The notes beneath the pieces were generated by a model. That model was not told where the DNA came from. It saw nothing but the letters and a program-made list of their open reading frames with translations, and ran no database searches. Of a stretch of 64,000 bases of DNA, positions 67 through 50,261 are shown piece after piece. Both the position numbers and the translations under genes were made by a program. Source of the stretch: Xylographa opegraphella (Eukaryota). Where the stretch lies: NCBI GenBank assembly GCA_022813865.1, contig JALDZX010000025.1, forward strand, positions 1-64,000, in the 5' to 3' direction. Each line of letters opens with the position of its first letter. The first letter of the stretch is position 1.

Positions 67-210
67 CAAAAAAATAATCAATTATAATTCATTATAATCG
101 ATTACTTTTTCAGTAATCGTAATCGATTTTGATTACAAAAAAAATAATCAAAATCGATTACTTTTATTCGATTATAATCGAATACACCTGATTTTGATTA
201 CGATTTTGAC
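67..210. repeat. AT-rich array of AATCGATT/GATTAC/GTAATC motifs with palindromes; possible non-autonomous transposon end
   Basis: Repeated AATCGATT, GATTAC and TAATC words, plus a perfect 20-bp palindrome TATTCGATTATAATCGAATA at 165-184. There is an abrupt switch to GC-rich sequence after about 212. Confidence 0.5.
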
Positions 211-14203: not shown

Positions 14204-15505
14204 ATGTCGGCATCCCTGCCAGGCAGTCGCGACTTGCCCGCTTCGCAGTATGACCTTAGTACCTATTGGGGACGAGTGAAGCAGTCTGCAGAGATCTCAG
14301 ATCCGAGGTAAGGAGACCGACATCGTCTCACCAATGCTGGTGTGGTAGATCTAGGGCAAATGCTAGCCTTTCACCCCGAGGTCCCCATACTGATGAAGAG
14401 AGATCCTAGAACACTGTTCGTCTCTTCTGCAGGTCTCGAAAATGCAAAGAAGCTTGTCTCATCGTATAAGCAAGGTCAAACTAAGTCCATGACACCAGAG
14501 CTATGGCAGGCCAAGAAGATAGTAGACTCGACCCTCCACCCTGGTGGGTCCCTTTCGTTCAGAGCCATTGAGCGCACTGACTAATTTTCAGATACTGGCG
14601 AGCCCGTTATTCTCCCATTCCGCATGTCCTGCTTTGTAATCTCCAATCTGATTGTCACTGCTGGCATGCTCACACCAAACCTCCAAGTACATCTCCCTCG
14701 TTGTAATCAACGGCATCATTGAACCCTACTTTACCACAAGCTAATGGCACTCCAAGACAACAGGCACTCTCCTCTGGCAGATCACCAACCAATCTCTTAA
14801 TGTAGCTATCAACTCAGCCAACGCGAACAAATCCAGCCCCCTCGCTATCTCGAATCTCGTACAATCCTATCTTATTGCCGTTTCCGCTTCCTGTTCCGTT
14901 GCGCTCGGGCTTAAAGCGCTTGTTCCCCGTATAAGGCGTGTCTCTCCTGCTACAAAAGTGATACTTCAGCGCCTTGTACCATTCGCAGCGGTTGCTTCGG
15001 CCGGCGCACTTAACGTCTTTCTCATGCGGGGTGAAGAGATCCGGAGAGGTATCGATATATATCCTATGTTAAGCGAGGAAGAGATAATGAGGAAGGGACA
15101 AGACGACATAGAGACGAAAAGCCTTGGAAAGAGTAAAAAGGCGGCGACATTGGCGGTAGCAGAGACAGCATTGAGCCGTGTTCTTAACTCAACGCCTATC
15201 ATGGTGCTACCGCCGTTGATACTAGTGCGGTTGCAACGCATGGAATGGCTGCGGAGCCGGCCACGACTGACATTACCTGTCAACCTAGGTATTGCTACCC
15301 ATACCCGGAAGAGAAGAATGCTGCTATTGTTATCTATTGCTGAATAGTATCTGTAGGACTGATATTAACAACCTCGATCTTCGCTCTACCCCTCGCCTTG
15401 GCATCCTTCCCACAGAGGCAGGCAGTGCAAGCCCAGAGCTTGGAGGAAGAATTTTGGGACAAGGGAGGTGAAGGAGGAAAGGTAGAGTTCAATCGGGGAA
15501 TATAG
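14204..15505 (+). CDS. FSF1: Sideroflexin-family mitochondrial transporter (Fsf1), multi-exon
   Basis: YDLSTYWGRV...SDPR, LWQAKKIVDSTLHPDTGEP..LPFRMS, WQITNQSLNVAIN, RLVPFAAVASAG, C-terminal FNRGI*. Confidence 0.9.
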
Positions 15506-17173
15506 ATAAGTTGGAAACGGCGGCCTTGCTATGTATATAAGCTTAGGATACCTGATGATTTGCACATGTAATGTGTAGGAGGAATATACCACACTTGCAA
15601 CTTTGGGAGCTCACTACTAATATATTGTATAGACTTACTCAGCAATCCTGATACGAATTGAAGTTGTCTACCACTTCTTTCTCCTCACTGTGTGAACCCA
15701 AAAGATGCTGCATGCCTTTCACCTCCATGATCAGACTCGACGTGGTTCACAAAACCAGCGCTGGGGTTATGTACGCACTTCCCTGAGTTAAGCACCTCCA
15801 GCGCCGCTTTGGTTATCAAAGTGCGTTGGTGAGCTAGTCGTTCTTAACGACAGGGCGTTCAGGAAGCCGCCTCTCCGTCATGACTGACAGTCGTCCAGTA
15901 TGCATGCTCACAGAGTCACGGATGCTCGAGGAGCAATGTCTCTCAGGCTTCCGATCCTGCTTTGTGGTTCGCACTTCGCTATCTACTATCATTTTACTGT
16001 CTATGCAGATCTTTGAGATAAGCGAAATGTGCAAACTTATCGAATGCCTGGTAAGGCATGTTGTTCAAGGGGATAGAAGGGGCTTGGAGCTTGATAGGAG
16101 ATGCGAGGCAAGGGCATGAGGTAAGCCAACTCTTCAGACTGCCTTCACGGAAAAATCTGTCAGAATGTGGTAGAATAAGGAGAAATGGCACCACGCATTT
16201 GTTTTCAGATAAGGATGTATAGGTACCGTATCCGGCAAGCTTCTCGTACCCAGGGCCAACTATACAAAACTACATAGGAAGAGATTCAATATGATTTCAG
16301 CGAATGTTGGATAAAGATCGCACGCTCCGGTTTCAACGACGATCGTACTTCTGTCATATGAAAGGCGCAGTTCCAAATGGCTGCTTTTAATGGCGGTCGC
16401 GGGCTACGCTGGTAGTATACTATATAAGGCGGTGCACAGTTCTGCTTTGTGTCGCTTTCATGGATTGTACAATGCTCTAACATCAACAGGTTTTTTAACA
16501 TCATTGTGAGATCGACCACGGTAGTTAAGCCTCGGCGGAAATAGCTTCCACTCTTGCCAACAGTGGTCTACTTTCCTGTTCTTGCTGGAGTGTGTCTCTT
16601 ATTGTGATACTGAAGATACTATAAGATCGGCGATTCAATTCGATAAAGCAAGACTTCTCTTTGTGTTTCGTATAAGGATAAGAGATCGGTAAGCACCAAC
16701 GGGTCCACGATATGCTCCTATGGCTCTATCTATATAGCCACGTTGGTGGAGTTGCTGTTTGGAAAGTTCTTCACCACCTTATCCGGGGGGGAGGTGCCAA
16801 ACCTCGAGGCCGTTGACGGAGAGTCCTAAGCGGGAAGGCGAGGGAGTGTAAATAGTGCGGTGCCCATCCATCAGAATTGCATAGGACAGTAGCAGGAATA
16901 AAACACATTTGTGAAAACGGTACAACGGATATGTGATGGTCAGCAATTCACTCGATAGACGCGCCTCGTACATTTAACAAGGCCGCGGCATTCGATTAGC
17001 AAGGGTTGAAGTAGCATAGCACAATAGTAGAGACGACCGTTTATCACGGCCAATCATTGTTCCTGCTGGCACAGGCAGCCTCATGTGTGCCTTACCAGGG
17101 CCGAATGACCCGCTGCAAAACACTCAGAAATTCATGTCCTTGCGGAACGCCATTCCAAGCAGCATGCATGCGC

Positions 17174-17187
17174 AAAAAAAAGCAAAA
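17174..17187 (-). terminator. RNA polymerase III oligo-T terminator of the tRNA-Arg gene
   Basis: The minus strand reads TTTTGCTTTTTTTT (T4 then T8), starting 8 nt after the tRNA discriminator base. Confidence 0.8.
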
Positions 17188-17194
17188 GTCTAAG

Positions 17195-17326
17195 CGACCA
17201 CGGTGCGATTCGAACGCTGTTTCTTGTAAGTATTATTTCCGATTATTCATAGTTCTGGATATTTACCACAATCTCCAGTGTATTCCACCCCGAAAACTGG
17301 CGCCTTAACCATTAGGCCACGCGGCC
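17195..17326 (-). tRNA. tRNA-Arg(UCG) with a 9-nt canonical intron (17281-17289) and a 50-nt GT-AG insert in the T-stem (17217-17266)
   Basis: The spliced sequence folds as acceptor GGCCGCG/CGTGGTC, D-stem GCCT/AGGC (loop AATGGTTA), anticodon stem CCAGT/ACTGG (loop TT-TCG-G-C), variable loop AGATT, T-stem GTGCG/CGCAC with loop TTCGAAT, discriminator G. An oligo-T terminator lies downstream. Confidence 0.9.
17217..17266 (-). other. Putative U2-type spliceosomal intron inside the tRNA T-stem (between tRNA positions 51 and 52)
   Basis: Minus strand: GTAAATATCCAGAACTATGAATAATCGGAAATAATACTTACAAGAAACAG. It has donor GTAAAT, branch-like TACTTAC and acceptor CAG, and at 50 nt matches the length of mRNA introns in this window. 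Confidence 0.8.
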
Positions 17327-17834
17327 TGACGATGGAAAAACGATACATATTTCGATCTATAATTGACAGGACCTATGTTGCCCGTAAATCCGGGCAAATT
17401 CACAACATCGTATTGTGAGGTGAGAATAATGGAGGATAAATAGTAACTAGAGCCAACCCGAGATTATGGCAGCGTTCGTAGTGCTGGGATAGTTACGAAA
17501 AAATATACAGACCCGGCATTAACGCTTAGGGTTAAGTTTAGCAGCAGGAAAGCCGGGAGTTGGTGATTACTAGTAGCTTAGCAGCGAGCTCGGATGATGA
17601 GATCTTCCAATGCTCTCCAGAAAATAGATTGGGGGCACATGCCTTGCATTGTTGGGTCTCAACAGTATACAATCGTTGCCGGTAAAGCACTGATGTGACA
17701 TGAAGTTGCAGATGGCTTCACATGTTGCATGAGCTTTTGCAGTTATACAGAAAATGCCCTGACAGTATGGATGTCGTTGTCTAGTGATAATGCCATACAT
17801 CCATGTGTATCTATCTTTACAGTATCCTCAAATG

Positions 17835-20498
17835 CTAGTCATCACTCATCGCGGGCCCCATCCCTATACCCGTTTTTCTCGCCTTCCCAATCGCTAGCAA
17901 GCACTTGCCAACGCCGTCCAAATCCCCCAGAAGCCCCACATGTCCCCTTTCAGTCCGCACCTTCCCATTCTTGGCAACTTTGTAGCCTCTCGGTAACATC
18001 GCTGCACGAGCAAGGACCACCCCATCACCGCTGGCGAATGCCAAATCGTCATAAGCGTCGGCTCGCTGGATCGATTCACGTCCAGCAACACGGGCGCCGT
18101 AAACTGTGGGCACAGATGTCGAGTAAAGAATAGAGACGGGTGGATAGTTATTTGACGATGCGTGTTCCGGCTTGAATGCGGTTTCACGCTTGAAAGCCAA
18201 AACCTCAGCGAGCGTACGTTCGAGGTAGGCCAAAGCAGCCACAAGAGGCAATGTGGAGGAGCTTTGAGGCTGCGATGGCCCCAGTTGCACGTTTGCAGGT
18301 CCGGCATAACCTTCGTTAGTTCTGGCTGCTGTATTGACGGTGTTAGATGACGGAACTGTTCGAGACGTGGTACCACCGGAGATCTTTCTTGGTCCCAGAG
18401 CCGGGAGACTCACAGCCATTGATCCCAGTAGCCCTTTCCGCTCCGGTTGGTTGATAGGAGGCAGCGCCGTGGCAATACAAGGGGAAAAAGCGTATTTCTT
18501 CCACGATTCTATGTTGAAGAAATCGACATGATATTCCTCGTTCGTCACTTTGTTGATAAAACATTGACCGCTTTCTGGTAATAGGACAAAGCTAGTTCTA
18601 AGTGTGAAGTTCACTTGTGCGGTCAAGACTCTTGAGCTTAGTAGAACCTCGTCACCACTCCGAAGAGGCCCAAGGATGTTAATACAGTGTTGGGGGACTC
18701 CGGCATAGACTACGCCCGCAAACAGGCTTGGAACCCGGTTGACCACATGTCGAGTGATAATACCCCCGAGGCTGTGGGCAATAACAGTGGCACCTCTTTC
18801 ATGTACGGGTATATCCGCTTGGTTACACGCCAGTTGTCTAAGGAATGCTTCGAGCTGTCGACTTAACAGATGAGGACTCAATCGCCAGTCATAGCCATAG
18901 TCATGTACTCTCAGTCTACCCTCTCGAGCGTTTTTACAATGTCTCAGCCTCTTTAGCAAACGGCGAGAAATATCCACAGGGCCTATGTGTGTAAGCATTC
19001 CCGACGCGAAGATGGTATTCTCCATGGTATCTTCATCTACATGTTCAAGACCAACCTCTAGATTGACCTTCCGAATATTTAAACCAACTTTGACCGGAAC
19101 CCAAAGCTGACGATGAGGTGCCTCTGCTGACCGAAGTATCGAGCCCCTATAGCCTCCCATCAATACTATATCGCCAATCAAGTGGTCCAAGGCAGTGTGG
19201 AGATTCTGATGAGGTGCTTTTGATGACGCTAGAGAATACTTTTGTCCGTAAGCGGAAGCTATTTCCTGCTCCTTTTCACGGGTCAAATTGCTGCTTCCGG
19301 GATAGCTTTTCATGGGAAAATTTGGGACAGCAGAATCGCTTGTGGTTCGTTTGTGGGTAAAGTCTGGTCGGAATGCACTGAAATTGATGTTCGATAAACT
19401 TGGAAGCTTCAACGCAGAGTCCTGGAAACTATCCTTGATCGCTTTCATCCTGCTGTTAACCTGCCCACGTACATCAACCCAACGGCTATCGTCACCCAGC
19501 GACGACACTCTGGACATCGCACTCCGCAACGGTAGCGACTGGTCTGATGCGATTTTCCGTAAGTGGACCAGTCCGCCTTGTGAATTGTGTGAACTTTGAT
19601 CCACAGCTCCGAGCTGCATGTTTGGATTTTGAGAGTGTTGCAGCTGGAGAGGAGCTGGTCGAGACGTTGAATGATCTATTTTATTGCACTTACCTGTGTA
19701 TTCTTTCTGTGCTTTGAGACTTGGCGGGCTTTCTCGCAACCTCTGTGATTTGTTATTCGGATTGAAGCCGAACCTCGGTAGGAACACAGAGTTTGACCTT
19801 CCAGAACGAGCCGACACTGGATGTACCCCATCTGTCTCTTTCTCGCCGCTGACCATAGAAGTTATGCGCGGCAACGTGAAGTCCTTGAACAAGCCTTGGT
19901 CACCCAGGCTAGGCAGACTGAAGCTTGCCCAGAAGCGCTTGATGTTTAGATCTGCTAGCATACCCGTAGGCTCGGTATATGATTGAATCTGCTCGTGGAT
20001 CCTGGGTCCAGATCTCCACGGAGATGGTAAGAGTTGCGAACCAGTTGGTGATAGTTCGCGCGAGCACGTTGAAAGGTCCATGGCACTACTGCGCAAAGGG
20101 TGCTGCAAGACTGGTCGTGTGTGCTGCTCTGCTTCTTCAGCTGTCTCGTTATCTTGCGGACCCCATCCCCACAACCCGCTGACGGCAGCGACCTTCTCAG
20201 CAGCTGGTATCGCTGGAGACGTAAGCCTCGTCTGTTCTCTCCCGATACTGACGCCCAGTATAGACTGCACGTCCTCTTCCCGTATAGTGTATTCATCGTG
20301 GCTCATTTCTTCATGATCTAATTCAACGTAATCTGACTTAATTGTAAGCGGAAGTCCATTGGAAGACATCTGGGGCGGCAGAGCTGTGAATCCTGCTGAA
20401 TCCGTATCACCACGTAAGCGTCCAAGATTTGCTGACTCCGGTAGTTCGTGCACTGGAAGTGGTGTTGAACCTCGATTTTCTACTGTTGAAGGGTCCAT
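17835..20498 (-). CDS. Uncharacterised 887-aa protein with a C-terminal LCAT-like alpha/beta-hydrolase domain
   Basis: Intronless ORF with disordered N-terminal half, GGYRGSILR, YDWRL, nucleophile elbow AHSLGG, GDGVV and a terminal His (RGHVGLL). Confidence 0.8.
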   Translation of the reverse strand: MDPSTVENRGSTPLPVHELPESANLGRLRGDTDSAGFTALPPQMSSNGLPLTIKSDYVELDHEEMSHDEYTIREEDVQSILGVSIGREQTRLTSPAIPAAEKVAAVSGLWGWGPQDNETAEEAEQHTRPVLQHPLRSSAMDLSTCSRELSPTGSQLLPSPWRSGPRIHEQIQSYTEPTGMLADLNIKRFWASFSLPSLGDQGLFKDFTLPRITSMVSGEKETDGVHPVSARSGRSNSVFLPRFGFNPNNKSQRLRESPPSLKAQKEYTGKCNKIDHSTSRPAPLQLQHSQNPNMQLGAVDQSSHNSQGGLVHLRKIASDQSLPLRSAMSRVSSLGDDSRWVDVRGQVNSRMKAIKDSFQDSALKLPSLSNINFSAFRPDFTHKRTTSDSAVPNFPMKSYPGSSNLTREKEQEIASAYGQKYSLASSKAPHQNLHTALDHLIGDIVLMGGYRGSILRSAEAPHRQLWVPVKVGLNIRKVNLEVGLEHVDEDTMENTIFASGMLTHIGPVDISRRLLKRLRHCKNAREGRLRVHDYGYDWRLSPHLLSRQLEAFLRQLACNQADIPVHERGATVIAHSLGGIITRHVVNRVPSLFAGVVYAGVPQHCINILGPLRSGDEVLLSSRVLTAQVNFTLRTSFVLLPESGQCFINKVTNEEYHVDFFNIESWKKYAFSPCIATALPPINQPERKGLLGSMAVSLPALGPRKISGGTTSRTVPSSNTVNTAARTNEGYAGPANVQLGPSQPQSSSTLPLVAALAYLERTLAEVLAFKRETAFKPEHASSNNYPPVSILYSTSVPTVYGARVAGRESIQRADAYDDLAFASGDGVVLARAAMLPRGYKVAKNGKVRTERGHVGLLGDLDGVGKCLLAIGKARKTGIGMGPAMSDD

Positions 20499-41765: not shown

Positions 41766-41822
41766 NNNNNNNNNNNNNNNNNNNNNNNNNNNNNNNNNNN
41801 NNNNNNNNNNNNNNNCCCCCCC
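41704..41822. other. Poly-C tract flanking a 50-N assembly gap (41766-41815)
   Basis: 62 C before the N run and further C after it. Confidence 0.95.
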
Positions 41823-49137: not shown

Positions 49138-50261
49138 TTACACCTCCTCCTCCTCCTGGTGGACTCCCTCTTTCTTCTCTCGTTCCTCCAGTCTCTTTTG
49201 CGTCTTGCCTACAGCTTCTTCGACCCATTTCTCGTATGCGGCTCCTCCCGCCTTCAATTTCTGCCTCACGACTCCCTTTAGCACTTCACTCACGAAACCA
49301 ACAAAGTTATGTCTCCTGAGCGCATTCTCCCACTGCCACGCGTTCCGCTTTTGCTCTTCCCTGTATAAGAAATCCTGATCACCGATCTCTCTTGCCCGTA
49401 TCCGTAGATCCCGCACCATGGCTAGAAGGTTGAATCTTATCTCATTTGCCGGATACCTTTGGATTCGACGCTGCAGAACTGGAATGACTTTCTCAGGAAA
49501 TTGTTCGAATGTGGAAGGGCCATGGGAAATGGGCGCGGGTTGCAGGCCGTCAAGCTCGTAAAGTATCCCGTTTATAGGCGTGTAGGCAATGAAGTGGTAC
49601 ACATCATCGTCTTCACTAGCTGTACGTTGCGTTTCGTCAATAAAGGGCGAGGAGCGAGCGAAGGAGTTGTGGACGTCTCTGATCAATTCTGAGTTGGATA
49701 AAGCTTCGCCTCGCAGCTGTGCGTTTCATGTCAAGACGAATGTCCGCGTCCGTAACCACTGTCAAAATAGCATACCTCGGCTGGAAATGCTCCTGTAAAT
49801 TCCCTAAAGTCTCGTAGCTGGTGGCCTATATCTATCTCTCCATCTTTGTTCAATAGTACTGACAGCAGAGCTTGTGTTCCACAGGCGTTCTGGATTGTCT
49901 GCGAAGCAAAGAATAAATTCTCGGCAGCTTCGTAGTCGAATGTACCGTCTTTGGGGGCTTCTGTCGGTCGTTCGTTGGTCGGATACTTAAAGAGGAATAT
50001 CACTCCATAGACTGGACTTGAGGCTTATGAGTAAGAGTTCAAAGTGGGAAAGGAAAGAAGTCCACAAGTACCTCTGCTGCTTGAGGTAGACTGCATCTAA
50101 AGCAATGAGCTCTTCGAACTGGACATTCTTTACTCCCAGATTGTCGACGAGGTAAGTGAAAACACCCTGCAGAGCATCGTAAGCAAAAGGGTGTTTCGTG
50201 AAGAAAACTTCTTCCAGAGGCGTACAGCGTCAGATTCAATGGTATTCCATCCTCCGGACAT
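49138..50261 (-). CDS. UCH2: Ubiquitin C-terminal hydrolase UCH37/UCH-L5 (Uch2), multi-exon
   Basis: WNTIESDAGVFT, QTIQNACGTQALLS (catalytic Cys), YHFIAY...LYELDGL and C-terminal ENALRRHNF. Confidence 0.9.

Follow-up and report, generated by a model that had tools for sequence, protein, structure and literature searches.

A candidate mRNA-type intron in the T-stem of a fungal tRNA-Arg(UCG) gene

An interrupted tRNA gene and its surroundings

The whole stretch of DNA considered here, 'the window', is 64,000 nt in length (64 kb). At positions 17195-17326 of its minus strand lies a structurally complete tRNA-Arg(UCG) gene, one that is nuclear and that belongs to an ascomycete-like fungus. This gene occupies a spacer, poor in ORFs and some 2.4 kb in length, which separates two convergent genes, and its start is found 509 nt downstream of the stop codon of one of these, i.e., of the gene for an 887-aa protein, which is encoded by the same strand (Table 1). 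A relaxed search with RF00005 found no further tRNA, whole or partial, elsewhere in the 64-kb window.

Table 1. Position and basis of the features of the interrupted tRNA-Arg(UCG) gene and of its two neighboring genes within the window
Feature	Position	Strand	Basis or remark
Sideroflexin gene, exon	14745-15344	+	Pfam SFXNs, E = 4.7e-64
Gene for 887-aa protein	17835-20498	-	Without a Pfam match; protein atlas: LCAT-like hydrolases of Ascomycota, score 0.97
Whole interrupted tRNA-Arg(UCG) gene, 132 nt	17195..17326	-	Rfam RF00005 full-length; ARAGORN after deletion of the insert; homologue alignment
Exon part 1, tRNA positions 1-37 (acceptor 5' strand, D-arm, anticodon stem 5' strand, U33, anticodon UCG, G37)	17290..17326	-	G37/C38 assigned via homology to intronless locus L001
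A-box-like internal promoter element TGGCCTAATGG, tRNA positions 8-18, intact	17309..17319	-	Direct reading
9-nt anticodon-loop intron GGTGGAATA, position 37/38, canonical TSEN (endonuclease) type	17281..17289	-	ARAGORN intron call
Exon part 2, tRNA positions 38-51 (C38, anticodon stem 3' strand, variable loop AGATT, T-stem nucleotides 1-3)	17267..17280	-	Direct reading; stem-pair check; homologue alignment
50-nt GT...AG insert between T-stem positions 51/52, candidate spliceosomal-type intron	17217..17266	-	Direct reading; deletion test; homologue alignment
Donor-like hexamer GTAAAT	17261..17266	-	Position +5 is A, versus G in 15/16 curated local introns
Branch-like CTTAC, with 10 nt after its A	17226..17230	-	One base off CTRAY
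Acceptor-like CAG	17217..17219	-	Direct reading
Exon part 3, tRNA positions 52-73 (remaining T-stem, T-loop TTCGAAT, acceptor 3' strand, discriminator G)	17195..17216	-	Direct reading
B-box-like element CGTTCGAATCG, uninterrupted, within exon part 3		-	First base is the first base after the 50-nt insert
Pol III terminator-like trailer, T4 and T8 runs, 8-21 nt 3' of the gene	17174..17187	-	Direct reading

The mature tRNA, as predicted from the sequence, is 73 nt long with its discriminator G counted. The minus strand from 17326 to 17195 had previously been parsed as a tRNA in which every stem other than the interrupted one is intact. The letters are exactly as then given, and the cloverleaf indeed consists of standard pairs throughout (21/21, two of which are G-U). 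Apart from the 50-nt insert, that is, no defect is seen in the structure, promoter boxes, or terminator of this gene. The term 'A-box-like' here is relative to the consensus TRGCNNAGTGG, with both A-box and B-box consensus sequences being a matter of general knowledge. Relative to two intact homologues, L001 and L004, which are loci from a metagenome scan considered below, the exons differ by one D-loop base and by one compensated 31-39 pair. L001 is an intronless tRNA-Arg(UCG) gene. L004, also tRNA-Arg(UCG), possesses a 9-nt intron at the same 37/38 place as does the window gene, but one of different sequence. All of the complete homologous metagenome loci display T runs of at least 5 within about 30 nt downstream.

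Standard tRNA finders had been expected to overlook this gene, and they do. ARAGORN called no tRNA across the whole native window, whether or not anticodon-loop introns were allowed, and Rfam at its gathering thresholds returned no match for the interrupted tRNA gene. At a relaxed threshold RF00005 instead matches 17326..17195(-) exactly, over model positions 1-71 of 71, with 28.9 bits versus a gathering score of 29. Two local inserts are opened by this alignment, a 12-nt one at the anticodon loop and a 61-nt one at the T-arm. Deletion in-script of 17217-17266 results, as had been anticipated, in ARAGORN calling tRNA-Arg(tcg), along with an intron of 9 nt in its anticodon loop. Deletion solely of those 9 nt still leaves ARAGORN without a call. 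The 9-nt intron is found at 37/38, the place of canonical tRNA introns, while the 50-nt insert, at 51/52, is not. On the explanation considered best below, the gene would bear two kinds of intron, one of the anticodon-loop type and one, the 50-nt candidate, of mRNA type.

The insert as compared with local mRNA introns

Alignment with the intact homologues L001 and L004 was used to set the register of the insert, which has ...GATTGT(G) on its 5' side and (G)CGTTCG on its 3' side. Excision is ambiguous by 1 nt, as removal of 17218-17267 gives an identical product. The original prediction, that removing exactly 17217-17266 rebuilds the T-stem GTGCG/CGCAC, consequently stands with regard to the stem, which is restored, but not with regard to 'exactly', since the register shifted by 1 nt does the same. 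That alternative register is not GT-AG, however, and its intron score is -18.4 bits. ARAGORN was tried as well as a test of register, on 735 deletion variants generated in-script, but was uninformative: 294 were accepted, with leftover bases absorbed into the variable arm. The spliced junction that is predicted for the window gene joins AGAUUGUG to CGUUCGAAU.

All three of the signals ascribed earlier to the insert, i.e., a GTAAAT donor, a CTTAC with its A 10 nt from the 3' end, and a CAG acceptor, are found as described. Located precisely between the A-box-like element and the B-box-like one, the insert contains no T run longer than 2. Its composition is 50% A (25/50) and 28% G+C, with local introns being 16-40% A.

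By 'local introns' are meant 16 mRNA introns of the window. Fourteen of these were curated by ORF-joining evidence, and the other two, both from UCH37, were added since Pfam Peptidase_C12 continues across them and the frame after splicing is open. They range in length from 47 to 69 nt. The insert at 50 nt is typical in this regard, as had been claimed, though the range then offered for mRNA introns here, 48-55 nt, was too narrow. Donors possess G at +5 in 15/16, the exception being GTACTT, which is homology-supported; branch motifs are CTRAY-like, with 7-16 nt following the branch A; and acceptors are YAG in 15/16, with AAG the exception. A donor without G at +5 thereby occurs locally, as does an acceptor of AAG, among UCH37 introns 1 and 2. 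As to UCH37 intron 1 (50225-50167), the GCTTAC noted previously at 50179-50184 is present and is the only branch-like motif of that intron. CTTAC, that is, would be the branch candidate also of a homology-supported mRNA intron within the same window, which speaks for reading the insert as an intron.

Scores combined position weights for donor, best branch, and acceptor, with local introns scored leave-one-out. Against a local consensus donor of GTRNGY, the GTAAAT of the insert earns 2.9 bits, to which CTTAC adds 4.5 and CAG adds 4.4, for 11.8 bits overall under the 16-intron model. This is inside of the range of the local introns (6.0-20.1 bits) but at its low end, under 14/16. Segments of the window, as a null, reach at least this score in 35 of 127,602 50-mers (about 3 in 10,000), and in 20 of 471 if only GT..AG 50-mers are considered. 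Under a model built from the 14 ORF-curated introns, the insert scores 9.65 bits, which is less than all 14 training introns (11.7-20.3), with 72 of 127,602 random 50-mers and 7.6% of GT..AG 50-mers scoring at least as high. The insert is, in other words, a plausible but weak intron. Its statistical weight comes mostly from its GT..AG boundaries and its length, and given GT..AG the remaining signals are only modestly unusual.

The insert from a different perspective might represent filler or otherwise fragmentary DNA of 50 nt that begins with GT and ends with AG by accident, having no link to the spliceosome. Such chance resemblance is consistent with the 4-8% of GT..AG 50-mers which score as high, with an atypical richness in A, and with the 1-nt ambiguity in register. 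Those just 35 in 127,602 random 50-mers nevertheless argue against it, a count for which doubling to allow for two registers alters nothing, as too does a length typical for local introns. A far better intron mimic, furthermore, is found at another site in an independent tRNA-Arg(UCG) locus, as described in the next section. Mere chance, all told, would seem to be quite improbable.

Two additional ideas as to what the insert could be were rejected. The first is an antisense intron: a plus-strand GTAAGT at 17226-17231 is just the branch-like motif, ACTTAC, in reverse complement, plus-strand boundaries are CT..AC, and overlapping ORFs are short only. The second is an origin as a repeat or transposon, since no other copies occur in the window or in the metagenome loci, the two inserts known (see below) are dissimilar, and no target-site duplication is seen beyond 1 nt.

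A tRNA intron need not be an mRNA-type intron, and the insert could represent instead a non-canonical tRNA intron, i.e., one whose removal falls to the tRNA splicing endonuclease together with ligase, or to an unknown endonucleolytic route, with introns of archaea, Cyanidioschyzon merolae, and nucleomorphs serving as model. The gene indeed already relies on that pathway for its 9-nt intron. The fungal tRNA endonuclease is held to measure from the mature domain, however, which cannot form so long as the T-stem is split. The insert alone folds at -0.9 kcal/mol, that is, it is essentially unstructured, and no helix joining its two junctions was predicted, either with free folding or with cloverleaf-constrained folding of the precursor. 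Nor was a bulge-helix-bulge motif found: The junctions display a single weak 4-bp pairing, UUGU/ACAG, without the flanking 3-nt bulges, although the 4-bp junction-helix scan is crude, giving many chance hits, its positive control included, and so is weak evidence against such a motif. Introns of this non-canonical type do resemble the insert in occurring outside of 37/38, D-arm and T-arm included, in being present more than once in some genes, and in being missed by standard tRNA finders (PMC4090602, in the passages drawn upon here). Their mechanism, where known, on the other hand involves a bulge-helix-bulge and the splicing endonuclease, with lengths from 3 to a few tens of nt and with no GT-AG or branch (passages of PMC4090602). 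The insert has the opposite properties, and the presence in two independent cases of a GT start, an AG end, and a branch motif has no bulge-helix-bulge rationale. Removal by endonuclease thus can be viewed as very improbable.

A second interrupted tRNA-Arg(UCG) locus

A metagenome scan that employed the 22-nt 3' exon as its pattern returned 10 loci, all identical in this exon and in the G preceding it owing to the pattern having been used for the search. A scan instead with a 27-nt 5'-half pattern returned 0 matches. Besides L001 and L004, the 10 consist of one intronless locus as seen in three related genomes (L003, L009, and L010), a truncated contig (L006), two tRNA-Arg(CCU) loci (L007 and L008), and two tRNA-Arg(UCG) loci, L002 and L005, which carry a 49-nt insert in the D-arm, between positions 12 and 13. 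None of the 10 carries the T-stem insert of the window gene, which counts against the splicing model set out below. Among runs of the source study, the locus is covered by the probable source run only (1/3), and no orthologue was found in the two others at 80% likeness, just unrelated, uninterrupted tRNA relatives.

The insert of L002 and L005 reads GTGAGT...(T/C)TGAC(N10)...CAG and is found in the sense orientation. Its register is unique, as a shift of one base in either direction breaks the match with the intronless paralogue; in their exons, L002 and L005 do not differ at all from intronless L003, L009, and L010. Scored with the intron model of the window, i.e., that of a different organism, the insert receives 19.0 bits for L005 and 15.4 bits for L002, levels which are reached respectively by 1 and by 2 of the 127,602 null segments. 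T7/T8 terminators are present 3' of both genes. Between L002 and L005, which come from two assemblies, 15/822 sites differ (98% identity), with two differences in the insert, one of which turns TTGAC into CTGAC, and 0 in the exons, though with only 15 differences over 822 nt this zero carries no statistical weight. As it is common to two genomes that are approximately 2% apart, the insert of L002/L005 is real and is older than their split.

The inserts of the window gene and of L002/L005 share no sequence, and so are independent events. Both are in sense orientation and of local-intron length, and each opens with GT, closes with CAG, and has its branch motif 10 nt before the end. With two unrelated inserts possessing the same signals at two non-canonical positions, neither chance nor an intron of endonuclease type looks likely. 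Neither insert turned up a further time across the 64-kb window and the 10 metagenome loci. One of about six orthologous groups, as recovered by the scan with that single 22-mer, carries an insert of the L002/L005 type. With this independent case, intron-type inserts in tRNA genes are seen to recur, and in another lineage. By form and by origin, then, the window insert very probably is a spliceosomal, i.e., mRNA-type intron, so far as this can be judged from sequence.

Splicing or decay, and the precedents

To say what the insert is by origin is not to say that it is removed. The explanation which we consider best, while granting it somewhat less than even confidence, is that of a GT-AG, U2-type intron in sense orientation that the spliceosome removes. 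Transcription, presumably by Pol III, would proceed from the intact A and B boxes and end at the T8 terminator; with the insert lying between those boxes and lacking T runs of greater than 2, it would be compatible with such transcription. The unfolded T-arm would then expose GUAAAU, the branch region, and CAG, and the spliceosome would excise the 50 nt as a lariat. Only upon that excision could the T-arm and L-shape form, presumably to be followed by end processing and by endonuclease removal of the 9-nt intron. That the insert is spliced out to give a working tRNA in this manner, with spliceosome first and endonuclease next, is a model held tentatively, being somewhat less probable than not. 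As for how the intron arrived, most likely this would have been via reverse splicing or via transposition of an intron, the target being a gene with high transcription, just as has been proposed for introns of U6 snRNA and of rDNA.

In favor of function, both interrupted genes are otherwise flawless, and the window insert sits between the promoter boxes without a terminator-like T run. Against function, the signals of the insert are weak (A at donor +5, a branch motif off of CTRAY) and its composition is odd, while for L002/L005 the A box is split and intronless paralogues are present. Pol III transcripts generally are held to be poor substrates for splicing, which counts against the model. 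So too does the possible dispensability of tRNA-Arg(UCG), i.e., where ACG/ICG and CCG isoacceptors exist. In favor of the model, fungal spliceosomes are known to act on U6, a Pol III product, and on Pol I rRNA (passages of PMC5855946 and PMC8527467).

The main rival to a spliced tRNA is a dead or dying copy. Here a genuine spliceosomal intron would have inserted, whether through reverse splicing plus reverse transcription or at an R-loop, with the resulting transcript unspliced or too poorly spliced, so that what is seen is a young, undecayed pseudogene for which other genes supply the function. Decay of this sort accounts equally well for the intron-like form of the insert, and would be in keeping with the weakness of the window insert's signals. 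It likewise would be in keeping with what is seen with L002/L005, i.e., an A box that is split by the insert, intronless paralogues of identical mature sequence beside these loci, and no measurable constraint between the two (those 15 differences in 822 nt). The intronless L009, particularly, was found in the same assembly set as L005, implying that the interrupted copy may be dispensable. Many fungal U6 introns, too, are without proof of expression and splicing, going by what is said of them in PMC5855946. Harder to reconcile with dead copies are the flawless exons and terminators of both interrupted genes along with the intact promoter boxes of the window copy. In addition, an insert in one of approximately six orthologous groups would represent a high standing frequency were each insertion to kill its gene, and the insert of L002/L005 predates the split of two genomes that are 2% apart. 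On balance, a dead copy is a real possibility, only slightly less probable than a spliced tRNA.

Precedents for an mRNA-type intron within a non-coding RNA gene do exist. The closest are the introns of U6 snRNA, as found in Schizosaccharomyces pombe and in further fungi (Tani and Ohshima 1989, 1991; Canzler 2016; for a review, PMC5855946). In the passages of that review drawn upon here, these have as host a small non-coding RNA with internal Pol III promoter elements; they are short and, beyond a branch site and 5' and 3' splice sites that are canonical, unconserved; and they are lineage-specific insertions, at varying positions, for which reverse splicing is the proposed origin. The candidate tRNA intron resembles them in these regards, though with splice signals that are weak. 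It differs in that a tRNA is a host not known to touch the spliceosome's active site, and it has a dedicated intron system, such that one tRNA gene would need both splicing systems. In S. pombe, moreover, U6 splicing is proven and the U6 gene is single-copy (PMC5855946), whereas the intron of the window tRNA is a candidate.

Among ascomycetes, both those that form lichens and others, spliceosomal introns are known as well from rDNA (Bhattacharya 2000, cited by PMC8527467 and by PMC5855946). Lichen rDNA introns are removed from Pol I rRNA by the host spliceosome, including following their transplanting into yeast rDNA, as parts of PMC8527467 describe. The likeness is one of lineage, i.e., ascomycete, and of an mRNA-type intron residing ectopically in a structural RNA gene outside of Pol II transcription. 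A tRNA, however, is a 73-nt product of Pol III rather than of Pol I. Copies of rDNA also are homogenized, so their introns must be spliced, while tRNA copies are independent and an interrupted one can be dead.

A third comparison is with the introner-like elements of fungi and algae, which are short (<200 nt), non-coding, newly gained, and supplied with their own splice signals (PMC11146597, in the portions relevant here). Reverse splicing of introns into R-loops of transcribed genes is proposed there, with introns landing in sense orientation, and R-loop insertion of introners would similarly place them in the sense direction of transcribed genes, which is the orientation of both tRNA cases. 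Introners nonetheless are recognized as multi-copy families within protein-coding genes, while for the inserts here no further copy of either was found within the 64-kb window and the 10 loci.

In the open-access literature, no published instance was found of a tRNA gene with a spliceosomal intron. Within the passages used here of a 2014 review of tRNA introns, there are zero mentions of the spliceosome, and eukaryotic non-canonical introns are limited to nucleomorphs and Cyanidioschyzon merolae (PMC4090602). Corresponding passages of a 2023 review of tRNA processing (PMC10275265) and of a 2025 paper (PMC12530127) present the intron types as separate, and the non-coding RNAs with spliceosomal introns which are named in the portions consulted of the U6 review are U6, U2, U5, U1, and rRNA, with tRNA absent (PMC5855946).

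The candidate described here would extend mRNA-type introns in non-coding RNA genes to tRNA. It is possible, though we would consider this doubtful rather than probable, that some ascomycetes possess working tRNA genes with spliceosomal introns at D-arm 12/13 and T-stem 51/52. The spliceosome by this same doubtful reading would process tRNA precursors, and tRNA-Arg(UCG) would need both splicing machineries in sequence. If the inserts are spliced, then they would represent a new class of substrate for the spliceosome, with one 73-nt RNA dependent on a pair of splicing systems that are unrelated to each other. Should they not be spliced, then they still would be rare and direct traces of the arrival of spliceosomal introns in genes other than those for mRNA, traces which bear on how introns are gained, i.e., by reverse splicing or by R-loop insertion at highly transcribed genes. 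In either case, counts of fungal tRNA genes may miss genes such as these or mislabel them as absent, and a class of introns that is hidden from standard tRNA finders, if true, could be widespread.

Interrupted and related tRNA-Arg genes in metagenomes

Ten metagenome loci (L001 to L010) match the 22-nt 3' exon of the window tRNA-Arg(UCG) gene, and two of these, L002 and L005, carry tRNA-Arg(UCG) genes which themselves are interrupted. Here the insert is found instead in the D-arm, at positions 12/13, is 49 nt in length (GTGAGT...(T/C)TGAC...CAG), and splits the A box. The mature sequence of this tRNA is common to L003, L009, and L010, all of which are intronless. The final 22 nt of the window tRNA-Arg(UCG) are also seen with a different isoacceptor, that is, with the tRNA-Arg(CCU) of L007 and L008, two metagenome contigs which agree at all 212 bases read on and beside the matching segment.

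Features considered
Feature	Location	Strand	Remarks
Interrupted tRNA-Arg(UCG) gene	L002:399-527	-	metagenome assembly
Interrupted tRNA-Arg(UCG) gene	L005:296-424	+	metagenome assembly other than that of L002
Near-perfect hairpin	window 107-174	+	AT-rich, 21% G+C
Spacer	window 15350-17830		~2.4 kb, between two convergent genes
887-aa protein	window 17835-20498	-	single exon
Single N	window 38156		assembly gap
Run of 50 N	window 41766-41815		assembly gap
UCH37 intron 2	window 50071-50017	-	

Surroundings of the window gene

The spacer contains no ORF of more than 97 aa and, the tRNA aside, no Rfam match; it seems long versus the tight ORF spacing found elsewhere in the window. The neighbouring 887-aa protein has no Pfam match at 1e-3. 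A protein atlas nevertheless groups it, with very high confidence, with Ascomycota LCAT-like hydrolases, and its C-terminal half possesses a GxSxG-like motif, AHSLGG. The hairpin near the window start has an Rfam mir-392 match below threshold (35.3 bits vs. a gathering score of 62; E = 0.0033). It probably represents a palindromic repeat and not a microRNA.

Splice signals on either strand and in UCH37

Read on the plus strand, the 50-nt insert of the window gene contains GTAAGT (17226-17231), i.e., the reverse complement of its ACTTAC branch-like motif, which demonstrates how a donor consensus, seen from the opposite strand, mimics a branch site. In UCH37 intron 2 the signals depart from the consensus (donor GTACTT, acceptor AAG, branch candidates CTTAC/CTCAT); the intron is nevertheless required by Pfam continuity along with an open spliced frame. 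The spliceosome of the Xylographa opegraphella genome seems to tolerate weak splice sites.
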